A DNA stretch of 12,132 nucleotides from Planctomycetota bacterium (GTDB taxonomy: Bacteria; Planctomycetota; UBA1135), in the NCBI GenBank assembly GCA_045047305.1, contig JASFYO010000034.1:1-12132 (forward strand), in the 5' to 3' direction. The stretch's first letter is position 1. Every line of letters begins with the position of its first letter. A program made the position numbers and the translations under genes. The notes under the pieces were generated by a model that saw nothing but the letters and a program-made list of their open reading frames with translations, had not been told where the DNA came from and did not search any database. This document shows positions 1-4,761 of this stretch, piece by piece.

Positions 1-25
1 TGAAGGCGTTTCCTTTGAGCTGCTG

Positions 26-601
26 CTAAGAATGCGACGCGACAGGCTTTACCCAAGCAAAGTCTTGCCATGCCTCGTCCAAGGGGATCTCTGCGACGTG
101 ATTCACATAGTTACTCATCGTTTTCATCGCTACACCGACGATGACTTCCATGGCTTGAGCAGGTTGATAGCCCGCACTTACAAACGCAGCCAGAGCATCG
201 CCCTGAACACGTCCACGGTGCTCCACCACTTGTTCCGTGAAGCGGCGCAAAACCTCTAAACGTGCATCTGGGATCTCACTGCCATCTCGAAGTGCCTGAA
301 GAAACTCTTCCGGCATGCCAACACTTTTAGCGAAGGCACTATGCGCAGGCACTCAGTACATGCAGTCATTCCAATAGCTAGTCGCAAGTAAAACGACCTG
401 CTCCTCCACTGGAGTCATGCTGCTTGCTCCCATGAAGTTCGCGCTCAACCCCATGTAGGATTTCAATGCAGATGGAGATGCTGCCAAAGTCCCAAGAAGG
501 TTCGGCACCATGCCGAATTTCTTTTGAGCCATGGCAAGCATCGGGCGTGACGCTGGTGGAGCCGTCTCTGGTGTAAAAATGGGGAAAGATTCGTTTGGCA
601 T
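26..601 (-). CDS. AhpD/carboxymuconolactone decarboxylase-like protein, 191 aa, with in-frame TGA at 353-355 (probable selenocysteine, CxxU)
   Basis: ORFs 353..601 (82 aa) and 26..352 (108 aa) are contiguous, in the same frame and separated only by one TGA. The joined protein shows the family pattern throughout: FGMVPNL..LA.SP..L..Y, EEQVVLL..S..N.CMY*V.AH, L..FT..VV..RG.V, AGY...Q..EVI.GVA.KT.SNY.NH.A..PLD. Confidence 0.88.
292..352 (-). promoter_or_regulatory. Candidate SECIS-like stem-loop immediately 3' of the in-frame UGA
   Basis: mRNA after UGA, folded by eye: GUGCC(+14..18) pairs with GGCAU(+34..38), and CGCU(+21..24) pairs with AGUG(+28..31) around an AAA loop. An outer helix GUGCCUG(+1..7)/CAGGCAC(+55..61) is also possible. 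The apical loop lacks the G typical of bacterial SECIS elements. Confidence 0.4.
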
Positions 602-626: not shown

Positions 627-1235
627 TTAAGTAGAGAGGGCGGGGGAATCGGCAAAGATTCCCTGGAGCGCAACCTGCATGGTGCGACGCAATGTGGACA
701 AGGTTTGCCCTGACCTCGCTTTCACCACCACACCTTGCATGACGCTTTGCACCAAGCTGGCTGCGTCGAAGGCACTCAGATTTGGACGCAACCCACCTCT
801 AGCGTGCACGCGCTCACATGCCGCGAGGAGAGCATCGAACAGACGTTGTTGCTGCTTATTACCAAAGTCACGCAACTCCCGATCGTGTGGCCCCTGTTCG
901 ATCAACATATTGATCAGTAAACATCCGCGAAAATTGTGATCACCAAAAACGTTTTGCGGTACGCGTTTCAAAAGCACCTCTTCCAAAGCTGCCTGGCCAT
1001 CAGGGTTTGTGAGTAAAGGCTGGAGGATGTTCTCGTCAGTGGAGCGGTCATAGAGACCCAAGGCAGCTAAAAACAAGGAGCGCTTATCCCCGAAGGTGCT
1101 GTACAAGCTAAAACGTTCGATTCCCATAGCATCCAACAACATCTGAATACTGGTGGCCTCAAAACCATGCAGCCAAAACACCTGCATGGCGTTCTGCAGG
1201 GCGATTTCTGGGTCAAAGGATTTCGGTCGGCTCAT
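627..1235 (-). CDS. TetR/AcrR-family transcriptional regulator (NemR/ComR-like subgroup)
   Basis: N-terminal HTH MSRPKSFD...AMQVFW.HGFEATSI..L...MGI.R.SLY.TFGDKRSLF, with a C-terminal domain containing the RGCLLIN motif typical of this subgroup. Confidence 0.95.
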   Translation of the reverse strand: MSRPKSFDPEIALQNAMQVFWLHGFEATSIQMLLDAMGIERFSLYSTFGDKRSLFLAALGLYDRSTDENILQPLLTNPDGQAALEEVLLKRVPQNVFGDHNFRGCLLINMLIEQGPHDRELRDFGNKQQQRLFDALLAACERVHARGGLRPNLSAFDAASLVQSVMQGVVVKARSGQTLSTLRRTMQVALQGIFADSPALST

Positions 1236-1272
1236 TTCTGAATACTCATTCCTGAATGCTCATTCAGTAATT
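1231..1272. promoter_or_regulatory. Putative TetR operator: perfect palindrome plus an overlapping degenerate copy (14-bp period)
   Basis: CTGAATG-CT-CATTCAG at 1252-1267 is a perfect 7-bp inverted repeat. A degenerate copy CTGAATA-CT-CATTCCT lies at 1238-1253. CTCATT recurs at 1231, 1245 and 1259. The array is directly upstream of, and overlaps, the TetR start codon. Confidence 0.75.
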
Positions 1273-1355: not shown

Positions 1356-1430
1356 TGGAGCCAGAGACGAGAATTGAACTCGTGACCGCCGCTTTACGAA
1401 AGCGGTGCTCTACCCCTGAGCTACTCTGGC
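1356..1430 (-). tRNA. tRNA-Thr (anticodon CGT)
   Basis: Minus strand GCCAGAGTAGCTCAGGGGTAGAGCACCGCTTTCGTAAAGCGGCGGTCACGAGTTCAATTCTCGTCTCTGGCTCCA. Acceptor stem GCCAGAG/CTCTGGC, anticodon arm CCGCT-TTCGTAA-AGCGG, T loop GTTCAAT, encoded CCA. Confidence 0.97.
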
Positions 1431-1527: not shown

Positions 1528-3507
1528 CTACTGAACGCTAACGCCGGCAGACAGGTGGCCGCCACCCATGACGCCGATAGCGCGCGCGCAGGCTTCGGAC
1601 AAAGCTGCGTCGCCTTCGGTCATCGCGGATTGCAGTGCTGCAGTATCGACTGCAACCCCACTCCGTGCGTAAAGGTTGCCCAACGCGGAAGCCGCTGCGG
1701 AACGGACTTCCGAGCTGCGTGACGTATTGGAGACCACTGCGAGCAGTGCGGGTGCTGCAGAAGCGTCGCCGGAGAAACCGAGGCCGATTGCCGCGTACCT
1801 TGCAATGCTGTCAGCACGACCAAGAGCACCAATCATGGCGCTAGTGGCTACACCAACATCGCCATTATGAGCAGCGTGCGCCAAAGCCTTCGCTGCAGCA
1901 GTTGCCATGGTTACATAACGCTCACGTTGCGCATCAAGATCGGCAAAGCTATCGATGATGGTTGCAGCGTCGACCGAGTCGACTACGTTTGCATCCATTT
2001 CGCCAGTGCCATCATTACCAAGAACGTACACCGGAGTGCTGCCAAAGCGAGGATCCATACGCAGGCTCTTCACCACGCGTCCGGCGTAAAGGTCGGAGAG
2101 TGGGTCTGCGATTACGAATGCATCCACGTTGAGGCCGAGGTGCATGTTGACCAAGCCGGTGGCTCCATCAGCAGCGACAGTGACATCTACGCCTGCCATC
2201 ATCAGAGCTTCTGCCAACGCACTTGCGCGGTCGGCGTTGCCATCGATGATGTGCACTGCACGCTGAGCATCGAGGCTCAGTGCAGCAGCAAGATTACTGG
2301 TCACGGCGGAGCTGTAATCACCCTGGTGAGCCAATGCAATCGCAGCGCTGTGACTAACACTTGGGATTGGGCTTTGCAGAGCTTCCTGCAGGCCGTTCCA
2401 AGCTTTGCCACCAGCACCATCAAGAGCAGCGATCAGGACCTCTGCGGTTGCGGCGCGGTCACTCTGGACAGCGCGAGTCAGTGCCTCATCGATGGCGGCA
2501 TGGCCAAGGGTGAGAAGCGCATTGTTCTGCGCAGTCCGCTGCTCTGCGAGGTCTTCGCCGTAGCCCTGAAGGATGGCGACCTCACTGGCATAAACCATAG
2601 CCAAGCGCCATTCAGCACCCATCGCACCCAATTCGTTAGCGCGAAGAAGGCTGTGCTTGGCAAGCTCCATTTCGACCACGTTTTGTGGCACGTCATACGG
2701 GCTGAGGGTGCGACCATCAATGGTCCACAACACGCCGTAGTTCTCGGTTGGAGCCAAACCACGCACCATGTCGTGGTGGAAGTAGTACGAGCCTTGCTCG
2801 AGCAGCATGGATGCTGCATCACCGCTCACGATGGAGCTAGCCAAAGCTTGTACCGAACCGTCGCCATCGTTGGCAGCCATGTCGGCAACCCGAGCCATGG
2901 TGCGTGCATCACCGAGTGCATTCAACACGTGAAGGGAGCTCAAGCGCACCTCGGTGTTGGTGGAATGGGTTGCGGCCAACACTGGAAGAACCATGTTGGA
3001 GCCCATGCGGGACAAAGCGTAAATCGCAGCCAAGCGACGGCTCTCGTTGGAATCTCCCAATGCCGAAACCAGTGGGACAGCTCCGAATGGACCGAAGTTC
3101 TGGCTTAGAGCGAAGATTGCGTTGGCGCGGTCGGAGTATGAGTCCGAGAAGCATCCTTCCGCAGCAGTTGCAGCTGCATCTAGATCACGCATGGCCTCGC
3201 GGCCTTCGGTACGTGCAGAAGCAAGGATTTCCCGCGCGAAAGCTTCGAACTCACCACCTTCGATCAGAAGCTCAAGCAGAGCATCTTCACTTTGGTGTAG
3301 CATCTGCAACGCATCTGCGTTGGATGGGTTCGAGGCAACAATCTCGCGGAACTTGGCCGTTGCGGCCTCATAGTTGCCTTGGTGGTAGGCAGCCATGCCC
3401 TGATCGAGCAGTTGTTGCGAGGATTGGGCGTTCGCGGAAGTCGCGAAAACAGTAAAGAGGGTCGCACCTACTAGAAGGTGCAGCACCGATGTCCGAATGA
3501 GGCTCAT
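1528..3507 (-). CDS. Exported TPR/HEAT-repeat protein with an inserted degenerate receiver (REC-like) domain
   Basis: 659 aa. Signal peptide ending SANA-Q, a TPR-like helix pair (QGMAAYHQGNYEAATAKFREIV), several HEAT/PBS-like repeats (AVPLVSALGD...RLAAIYALSRMG; EVRSAAASALGNL) and a REC-like segment (AVHIIDGN...AGVDVTVAADG...VDAFVIAD...LRMDPRFGSTPVYVL). Confidence 0.8.
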   Translation of the reverse strand: MSLIRTSVLHLLVGATLFTVFATSANAQSSQQLLDQGMAAYHQGNYEAATAKFREIVASNPSNADALQMLHQSEDALLELLIEGGEFEAFAREILASARTEGREAMRDLDAAATAAEGCFSDSYSDRANAIFALSQNFGPFGAVPLVSALGDSNESRRLAAIYALSRMGSNMVLPVLAATHSTNTEVRLSSLHVLNALGDARTMARVADMAANDGDGSVQALASSIVSGDAASMLLEQGSYYFHHDMVRGLAPTENYGVLWTIDGRTLSPYDVPQNVVEMELAKHSLLRANELGAMGAEWRLAMVYASEVAILQGYGEDLAEQRTAQNNALLTLGHAAIDEALTRAVQSDRAATAEVLIAALDGAGGKAWNGLQEALQSPIPSVSHSAAIALAHQGDYSSAVTSNLAAALSLDAQRAVHIIDGNADRASALAEALMMAGVDVTVAADGATGLVNMHLGLNVDAFVIADPLSDLYAGRVVKSLRMDPRFGSTPVYVLGNDGTGEMDANVVDSVDAATIIDSFADLDAQRERYVTMATAAAKALAHAAHNGDVGVATSAMIGALGRADSIARYAAIGLGFSGDASAAPALLAVVSNTSRSSEVRSAAASALGNLYARSGVAVDTAALQSAMTEGDAALSEACARAIGVMGGGHLSAGVSVQ

Positions 3508-3552
3508 TTTCTACCCTGGTTCTTGAGTGGGCTCGGGTAAAGCAAGGGAAAC

Positions 3553-3585
3553 ACGTAGACGGTCCGTTAGTGACGACGTTTACGT
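3553..3585 (-). other. Imperfect intergenic hairpin between anmK and the HEAT gene (possible weak terminator or mRNA stability element)
   Basis: ACGTAGACG (3553-3561) and CGTTTACGT (3577-3585) form an inverted repeat with one mismatch and an inner GTC/GAC pair. It is followed by GTTTCCCTT on the minus strand. Confidence 0.3.
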
Positions 3586-3606
3586 AGGCAACATCATAAG
3601 AACGAC

Positions 3607-4761
3607 CTAAGTGGGGTCAAGCAAAGGTCCGGGAGACCACTGCCCTAAAACACATTGTTGCCGACATCCAGTAGTCGACAGCCAAGTGCTGGGCTCTTGA
3701 AGCAGAAATGCGTCGCCCAAAAGTGCGAAGGCCACGGCCTCCCGCGCATCTGGCTCCCAGCCCAATTCCGCATAGGAATGGACCCGAGTTGCGCCCAGGT
3801 GCCGGTTTAGGGCTGCCTGAAGGGCGGAATTATGCAAACCACCGCCCGCAACATACACCGCCCCCCCCTGCCAGCCGGCAGCTTTCAAGCTCTCGCCAAT
3901 ACTCCAGCCGACCAGCTCCGCCAAAGTGGCTAGGATGTCGCAAAGCTCGGCTTGGGGGGCTAAATTTCTCGTTTTCTGGGCAAGCGCCGCGCCGAACTTC
4001 TCCAAGCCAGTGCTCTTAGGTGCCGCCTGCTCAAAGTACGCATCTTTCTTCAAGGTCGCGAGCAGATCTCCCAGCACGGTTCCTGACGCAGCAAGCGCCC
4101 CACCGAGGTCCATCTCCTGATTAGCCTCGGCGCGCATGAGCACATCGAGTGGTCCATTCGCAGGACCCGAATCCCAAGCTGTGGGTGGACCGGATTTCGG
4201 CAGCAGGGTGATGTTGCAGATGCCGCCTAAATTCAAAATGACACGCTCCACCCCGCTTCCACCATGCAACACCCAGTCGGCAAAAGGAGATATCGGTGCA
4301 CCTTGTCCGCCGCCGGCAAGATCTGCAGTGCGGAAGTTGCCCACCACATCGGCGCCGACAGTGTGGGCAAGAACGGAAAGGTCACCAAGCTGCATCGAAC
4401 CATCCATCGGCTCGCCGCTGTGGTGATAAACGGTTTGCCCATGACTCGCCACGCAAGTGAGATGGTCTATCGGGAAATCGATACGCTCGAGGAAAGTAGC
4501 GGCACAACGTCCGAAAAAGGCGCCGAGTGCGTAATCAAAACGGGCTACGTCGGCCAGTTGCCATGCCGACGCCATATGAATGGCCTGCTGCAGCTTTTCA
4601 GGAAACTGCGCTGCGGCGGCGGAGAGCTTTTCCACCACGCGTTCCTGACCCTCGCCGGTCACCCGAATCAGCGCTAAGTCCACGGCATCGGCCGAGGTTC
4701 CTGAATTCAAGCCCAGGATGTAGCGCGGCTCACTACTCGGAATGCCGCGCATTTGCTCCAC
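3607..4761 (-). CDS. anmK: Anhydro-N-acetylmuramic acid kinase
   Basis: Family motifs GLNSGTSADAVD, SHGQTVYH, FR..D.A.GGQGAP, LNLGGICNIT, DSGPAN, PKSTG.E.F, GGG.HN and EAVAFALLG. The start may be GTG 4761 or ATG 4752. Confidence 0.95.
   Translation of the reverse strand: MEQMRGIPSSEPRYILGLNSGTSADAVDLALIRVTGEGQERVVEKLSAAAAQFPEKLQQAIHMASAWQLADVARFDYALGAFFGRCAATFLERIDFPIDHLTCVASHGQTVYHHSGEPMDGSMQLGDLSVLAHTVGADVVGNFRTADLAGGGQGAPISPFADWVLHGGSGVERVILNLGGICNITLLPKSGPPTAWDSGPANGPLDVLMRAEANQEMDLGGALAASGTVLGDLLATLKKDAYFEQAAPKSTGLEKFGAALAQKTRNLAPQAELCDILATLAELVGWSIGESLKAAGWQGGAVYVAGGGLHNSALQAALNRHLGATRVHSYAELGWEPDAREAVAFALLGDAFLLQEPSTWLSTTGCRQQCVLGQWSPGPLLDPT

Follow-up and report, generated by a model that had tools for sequence, protein, structure and literature searches.

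Whether an in-frame UGA at the active site of a short gene of a Planctomycetota bacterium (UBA1135 lineage) encodes selenocysteine (Sec), and whether this Sec form is one of those already known, is the question raised by the locus described here. The gene lies close to the end of contig JASFYO010000034.1 (assembly GCA_045047305.1), of which a stretch of 12,132 nucleotides, the window, was analysed. An earlier note on this DNA had proposed a hidden selenoprotein. The gene and its UGA, as characterised here, are as follows.

26..601, minus strand: AhpD/CMD-fold gene of the S. pneumoniae AhpD / SMU.961 subfamily, 191 codons, with a CxxU motif (C80-M-Y-U83, H87).
353..355, minus strand: in-frame UGA, codon 83, putative selenocysteine, in a column that is Cys in nearly all homologues; the same TGA is found in an orthologue (L155) and in a public contig (run X1).

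Around codon 83 the minus strand reads AAT GAC TGC ATG TAC TGA GTG CCT GCG CAT (NDCMY*VPAH), and the frame from ATG601 to the TAG at 28-26 gives 191 residues, its sole internal stop being the TGA at 355-353. The earlier note had described two halves in a single frame, forming a 191-residue protein free of other lesions, with the UGA at the second Cys of the motif, and had predicted that pipelines would miscall the gene as two ORFs. All of this was borne out: the frame is continuous from 601 to 26, column 83 is Cys in 79 of 81 homologues and in 225 of the 230 of a larger alignment, and ORF callers do cut the 191 codons into 82 and 108 aa, a protein collection containing the 82-aa half of the window gene (NCBI source) and a 96-aa C-terminal half. 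The further remark that the GTG following the TGA has no clear Shine-Dalgarno sequence is true, but weak as an argument, because the gene's own ATG601 also lacks one. Two separate genes are ruled out by one fold and one continuous alignment.

On the basis of sequence, the gene is a member of the subfamily of S. pneumoniae AhpD and SMU.961. Its product matches PF02627 (CMD) with 26.6 bits, against a cut-off of 23, and shows the other marks of the AhpD/CMD superfamily, an all-helical AhpD fold and a CxxC/U-xxx-H motif. The closest sequence matches are 3LVY (E 1e-33) and 6E8L (E 5e-33), the next entry being at 1e-9; the predicted structure (pLDDT 97), modelled with Cys at position 83, has a TM score of 0.89 to both, and the 6E8L/3LVY subfamily occupies Foldseek ranks 1-8. 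A debrominase was also found, by structure search, to have the same fold as the model. Curated families fit less well: for TIGR01926 the scores are 63.7 (window) and 66.3 (L155) against a cut-off of 81.8, the protein falls well short of the NF041238 and NF053654 cut-offs, and has no match to NF041047 at E<=1. The second Sec AhpD of the host, on contig C55, passes TIGR01926 with 129.7. Active-site residues are widely conserved among the 230 homologues (C80 in 217, H87 in 217, E66 in 212, N164 in 215); the third active-site cysteine of the streptococcal enzyme aligns with S163, a position that is Cys in only 10 of the 230. One subfamily member (L021, G037:C42:20826-21368) is devoid of both cysteines and of the histidine (ENASAYGVAAA).

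The host genome (2.83 Mb, 87.7% complete) encodes selA, selB, selD, tRNA-Sec and RF2, and a search for the four sel genes, which the earlier note had advised, thus found selA, tRNA-Sec, selB and a TGA-containing selD. The tRNA-Sec scores 75.6 bits and has a UCA anticodon, and the selB match reaches 280 bits; selA, the Sec-containing selD and selC are clustered within 6.5 kb (G000:C29:99547-106037; L257), and selB lies on contig C10. As the same note had held, UGA is not recoded genome-wide, a reassignment ruled out by the 237 of 857 long non-overlapping ORFs that end in TGA and by the presence of RF2. A coding-potential screen of the host gave 40 candidate read-through UGAs; 18 readings were scanned and eleven UGAs at redox positions of known families, other than the one studied here, were kept. 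They belong to Prx, BCP, two TlpA-like proteins, one AhpC/TlpA-like protein, MsrA, a VPGU protein with two Sec, a deiodinase-like protein, SelD and the second AhpD-like gene.

Some of the other in-frame TGAs of this genome deserve mention in their own right. The second AhpD-like selenoprotein (G000:C55:5169-5726, minus strand; L256) is of the classic type (DCHY*TFAH), with a consensus CGUGUU-loop SECIS common to its relatives in the family. A VPGU-family thioredoxin-like / MsrA-like protein (G000:C56:16186-17094, minus strand; L248) contains two in-frame TGAs (NF041383). A 1075-aa FG-GAP / ASPIC-UnbV (CRTAC1-like) protein (G000:C63:2548-5775, minus strand, TGA at C63:3738; L303, L308), having a paralogue at C63:261-872, features an in-frame TGA outside any CxxU motif (DVDL*SSFW), followed at 17 nt by a textbook SECIS, GCGCAC-GGUC-GUGCGU. 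One TGA is present in all 30 family matches, its position being verified in 8 of 8 loci, with compensatory changes in the stem. A 2026 review (PMC13188914) does not mention CRTAC1, ASPIC, UnbV or FG-GAP in its main text, and this protein is possibly an uncatalogued selenoprotein family. At G000:C49:18964-19524 (minus strand; L252) a small ORF ending in STVC-TGA, presumably BolA-like, is in frame with a Grx4 monothiol glutaredoxin: these are probably two adjacent genes, because no SECIS-like hairpin is found. Likewise, at G000:C44:9371-12856 (L304) a VWA-domain gene is in frame with a downstream multicopper-oxidase / cytochrome c gene, which resembles copper nitrite reductase; these are likely to be two genes, with no read-through.

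The fate of the UGA in relatives bears directly on its meaning. A HMMER search identified an 82-aa protein, 79% identical and ending in the same Tyr, and the metagenome pattern scan provided the DNA, L155, where a TGA at codon 83 interrupts an otherwise open frame of 190 codons with the same tetR upstream. Between the two genes, pS and pN are 0.71 and 0.142 before the UGA, 0.74 and 0.138 after it, and no stop interrupts the 105 downstream codons that were compared; the corresponding dN/dS values, roughly 0.07 and 0.05, are imprecise, because synonymous sites are near saturation. The earlier note had proposed to look for relaxed selection after the TGA and for its recurrence in relatives: no relaxation is seen, and the TGA is kept in L155 while homologues have Cys. 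Conservation of the UGA, with coding constraint on its two sides, is thus documented in one independent orthologue. A public contig (run X1) spanning positions 1-1500 also retains the TGA; it shows 11 differences from the window at other positions, 4 of them inside the gene and 3 of these synonymous, and its sample may be related to that behind the window. The public runs X1-X4 are assembled contigs. X3 and X4 cover the tRNA only, and X2 is not counted as support, because its TGA lies 10 bases from the contig end and it comes from the same study as X1.

These data weigh heavily against a pseudogene or a sequencing error, that is, a TGY-to-TGA change or a wrong base call in a Cys-type AhpD. Such an accident would fit the patchy occurrence of the gene, found in 0 of 48 other genomes of the family (completeness 69-92%), and the absence of a consensus SECIS from the window gene. 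It would not explain the same TGA in L155 despite near-saturated synonymous sites, the equal pN and the open codons downstream, the TGA kept in a contig that differs elsewhere, or the position of the TGA, exactly on the catalytic Cys in a genome that uses Sec. L155 by itself largely refutes this explanation; since the orthologue keeps the TGA and purifying selection is equal on both sides, we consider a nonsense mutation or an error very improbable. A functional gene might also have its UGA read as Cys, by a tRNA of the ReC/selC* type, or leakily as Trp. UGA-to-Cys recoding tRNAs do exist in some bacteria (PMC13582414), and the missing consensus SECIS would suit this reading as well. ARAGORN, at its default threshold, detected one tRNA-Sec and one ordinary 77-nt tRNA-Cys, only one RF01852 match is above cut-off, and Trp is found at column 83 in 0 of 230 homologues. 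A tRNA could have been missed, given the 87.7% completeness of the genome; overall, decoding as Cys or Trp appears very unlikely. The Sec reading of the earlier note is supported by the Sec machinery, by the TGA kept in the orthologue and by the constraint on both sides, and codon 83 is almost certainly recoded as selenocysteine, since a dead gene would not show such conservation.

How the UGA is recoded is less clear-cut. The consensus bacterial SECIS has G, usually then G or U, in the first two loop positions, and lies 16-37 nt from the UGA (PMC13188914, Fig. 2 legend). Fits were scored with our own implementation of this consensus, and not with bSECISearch. The window gene has no consensus SECIS at 16-37 nt, the best fit costing +7.4 to +8.0 kcal/mol; among the other host UGAs, 8 of 11 satisfy the strict rule within 0.5 kcal/mol of the MFE, and 10 of 11 the loose one. 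The window gene and L155 have in common two stacked, adjacent hairpins:

315..339, minus strand: predicted hairpin 1, GUGCC-UU-CGC/loop/GYG-UU-GGCAU, +17 to +41 from the U of the UGA.
293..315, minus strand: predicted hairpin 2, GAAGA-GUU-UCUUC core, candidate displaced SECIS, +41 to +63; the distance from the UGA to the GUU loop is 47 nt.

Hairpin 1 is at the usual SECIS distance and is stable, with core pair probabilities of 0.98-1.0 in both genes, which differ by one G-U to G-C change and by the loop, UAAAA in the window gene, hence without G, and GCAAA in L155. Hairpin 2 is present in the MFE structure of both genes: its upper-stem pair probabilities are 0.62-0.82 in the window and 0.76-1.0 in L155, those of the lower stem 0.03 in the window, where another pairing competes, and 1.0 in L155. 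Its GUU loop is also found in the host selD and in one TlpA-like gene.

Several observations support selection on this RNA. Synonymous identity over codons 84-104 is 12/18, versus 45/117 elsewhere (stratified permutation, p 0.013-0.023), codons 37-54 forming another synonymously conserved block (10/16). For the 63 nt that follow the UGA, folding is better than in synonymous recodings, with z of -2.15 and -2.33, values of -2 or below being reached by 1 of 28 Cys controls. The codon for F100 completes the GUU loop and its stem; this residue, found in 0 of the 230 Cys homologues, is one of 3 private residues among the 144 shared by the window gene and L155. The two independent Sec lineages found are too few to show covariation of the RNA. 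We tentatively propose hairpin 2 as the SelB site, a proposal that falls somewhat short of an even bet, with hairpin 1 as the alternative recruiting element. In L155 hairpin 1 is favoured over hairpin 2, because it is hairpin 1, with its GCAAA loop at 23 nt and a stem of 3 bp, that lets this gene satisfy the loose rule, and that rule only. Other points against a specific role of hairpin 2 are the competing pairing of its lower stem in the window gene, the second conserved block at codons 37-54 and the fact that F100 is not the sole private residue.

In a tree of 162 rows, the window gene and L155 are the sole Sec tips within a clade of 128 tips (support 1.0). The tree includes 25 Sec rows and is built on a subset of the proteins, with 10 of the 171 pattern-scan loci listed; L062, which is without the motif, was dropped, and the 3LVY and 6E8L sequences are not among the rows. 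The trait column did not drive the tree, because the stop was read as Cys. In a 42-row tree, a single clade of 14 Sec rows, the host's own classic Sec AhpD among them, was rejected by the AU test (p-AU 1e-40; LG+G4 quick search). We are therefore highly confident that Sec arose here independently of the classic Sec AhpDs, and the simplest reading of these sequences is likely to be a separate Cys-to-Sec gain in the common ancestor of the window gene and L155.

The Sec form of the subfamily was found in two lineages only, among the matches listed. Orthologues were searched in the 48 other genomes of the family, with no match. All loci inspected in 400 genomes of the phylum (28 of 28) and in 338 of the order (27 of 27) have TGC or TGT, with no TGA form, and none of the 27 matches in 351 Gemmatimonadota-phylum genomes has a TGA; the order genomes that have the Cys form and carry selA are 5 out of 5. 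A single-protein search for relatives in genome contigs found none, and plasmid tblastn returned only matches below 60% identity. None of the 51 matches of a GTDB scan for the TGA pattern is of this subfamily: 47 are AhpD-like genes of other subfamilies, mostly from Ktedonobacteria (best 67 bits), and 4 are chance matches. The metagenome scan produced at least 120 loci, with one orthologue among the matches listed, the others having at most 51.6 bits; the pattern used fits only 87 of 230 Cys-type flanks. Most rows of L076-L126 and L127-L246 belong to a large, uniform clade from Ktedonobacteria; its AhpD-like genes have the CxxU motif and conserve the hairpin CUGCCUU-GGC-AAGGCAG downstream of the UGA.

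AhpD-related selenoproteins are not new. Descriptions of CxxU AhpD-like and CMD-domain selenoproteins go back to 2005 (PMC1088965), these proteins are abundant in the GOS data (PMC2398784), and a table of Cys-to-Sec events in AhpD-like families appeared in 2006 (PMC1794560). The 2026 review distinguishes four families, CxxU AhpD-like (TIGR01926), CMD-like (PF02627), distant AhpD and AhpD-related (PMC13188914), and independent Sec gains in new subgroups are a published pattern (PMC13582414). The window gene might consequently be an ordinary member of a catalogued AhpD-like or CMD-like Sec family, and its origin nothing new. It passes PF02627, one of those four families; events of this kind have been on record since 2006; BSepDB, with 57,630 entries, 12.6% of them without canonical SECIS, may contain such members; and the limited reach of the TGA pattern, together with a metagenome scan known through its listed matches, leaves room for further Sec forms. 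Among the papers listed by the literature search, none is on a Sec form of the subfamily, which may already be in BSepDB. On the other side, the protein is below the TIGR01926, NF041238 and NF053654 cut-offs, while the other Sec AhpD of the same host passes the first of these. Six signature words of the subfamily gave 0 matches in the GOS selenoprotein file, for the part available (PMC2398784 supplement), the tree rejects common Sec ancestry, and the phylum, order and Gemmatimonadota genomes provide no TGA form among their matches. Membership in a catalogued family is accordingly a serious possibility, though not the one we favour. Our preferred reading, which we consider very probable, is that of one gene for a 191-residue AhpD-fold redox protein, whose UGA stands for Sec (CxxU) and which likely made its own switch from Cys within a Cys-using subfamily.

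The surroundings of the gene feature a regulator and a tRNA:

627..1235, minus strand: TetR-family regulator, 25 nt upstream of the AhpD-fold gene and co-oriented with it; also upstream of the orthologue in L155.
1238..1267, no strand assigned: two imperfect palindromes (CTGAATGAGCATTCAG-like) in tandem, immediately preceding the start of tetR, a likely TetR operator.
1356..1430, minus strand: tRNA-Thr(CGT); the tetR-ahpD cassette lies just 3' of this tRNA.
1..11, minus strand: 5' arm of what is likely a terminator hairpin, truncated at the contig end; L155 has the complete inverted repeat.

A sigma-70 promoter scan of positions 1-1530 found none. TetR neighbours within 1.5 kb were observed in 7 of 27 Cys-type loci of the order. 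The tRNA-Thr is covered in 7 of 8 congeners, and in all 7 it is followed by other sequence; tetR has only a 32% match, in 1 of 8. This, along with the patchy distribution, suggests that the tetR-ahpD pair is an acquired cassette. G+C was discarded as evidence of transfer, 52% being too close to the 54% of the genome. Upstream of the tRNA-Thr, the window (1528-4761, minus strand) encodes a HEAT/TPR-repeat protein and anmK; all 8 congeners have the HEAT gene.

The probable history of the cassette is acquisition in its Cys form, followed by conversion in a host that already made about a dozen redox selenoproteins. SelB and Sec-tRNA would be recruited by RNA structure immediately downstream of the UGA, the recruiter being most likely the GUU-loop hairpin 47 nt away, which the intervening hairpin could bring into reach. 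TetR may repress the two-gene unit through the palindromes at the tetR start, until an oxidant or electrophile relieves repression. In M. tuberculosis and S. pneumoniae AhpD, the second motif position is the attacking nucleophile. By analogy, peroxide or a similar oxidant would be attacked by the U83 selenolate, protons being relayed by H87 and N164/E66; resolution by C80 would give a selenenyl-sulfide, which a dithiol donor, a lipoyl protein or a thioredoxin-like one, could re-reduce. Reduction of AhpD by lipoyl proteins is on record (PMC8945050); for pneumococcal AhpD, weak thiol peroxidase activity and conflicting deletion phenotypes have been reported (bioRxiv 10.64898/2026.01.29.699744), and a literature search for a link between AhpD and hypothiocyanous acid found nothing. 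A thiol/selenol redox role in the detoxification of oxidants is probable, and peroxidase function is what fold and residues would imply. Taken together, the locus could be that of a recently born selenoprotein. A Sec-rich host would have received a tetR-ahpD cassette 3' of one of its tRNAs; Sec would then have replaced the catalytic Cys, and the coding sequence, together with a residue that none of the Cys relatives has, would have been remodelled into an element of two hairpins, whose SelB-binding GUU loop acts from 47 nt, 10 nt past the accepted limit, the intervening hairpin taking up the distance. The SECIS architecture would in that case be undescribed, and no Sec form would precede this one in the S. 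pneumoniae AhpD subfamily; with all its parts, such a scenario is rather unlikely to hold.

The split annotation of the gene is corrected, and a natural Sec counterpart becomes available for S. pneumoniae AhpD, an enzyme of solved structure but unsettled substrate. What Sec gives to this fold could be tested against Cys relatives of about 50% identity, whose hosts carry selA. A SelB site at the distant GUU hairpin would indicate one decoding route for the ~13% of bacterial selenoprotein genes without consensus SECIS, and the spacing rule used in selenoprotein prediction and engineering would be loosened. Should hairpin 1 recode the UGA, or the subfamily already be in BSepDB, the gene would be a routine addition to a family known since 2005.

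Among known systems, the AhpD-like CxxU selenoproteins (COG2128/TIGR01926; GOS 'AhpD-like 1'; PMC1088965, PMC2398784, PMC13188914) resemble the window protein in the AhpD/CMD fold, in the position of Sec within CxxU-xxx-H, in being split by gene callers and in having a SelABCD host. They belong, however, to another subfamily, at about 20-30% identity, and a shared Sec ancestor is rejected by the tree. The GOS 'AhpD-like 1' entries seen are similar to the C55 gene of the host, with its consensus CGUGUU-loop SECIS at 24 nt, and the latter has UGA-bearing relatives across the family and the order. With the CMD-like (PF02627) Sec family, compared by domain and motif only, the window protein shares PF02627 and CxxU; the two GOS 'AhpD-like 2' entries seen look unlike it. 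The best matches remain the Cys enzymes 6E8L (S. pneumoniae AhpD) and 3LVY (S. mutans SMU.961), with 35-36% identity, rmsd of 1.2-1.6 Å, the same N-x-C-x-[YF]-C-xxx-H core and the C-terminal NY motif: they differ in having Cys in place of U83, and their third cysteine aligns with S163. Compared with the consensus SECIS, stable hairpins within the coding sequence right after the UGA are a common trait, whereas the GUU loop is here at 47 nt. The kind of selenoprotein is thus a known one; what likely sets this case apart is a separate, rare origin in an otherwise Cys-only subfamily, together with a non-consensus recoding element.
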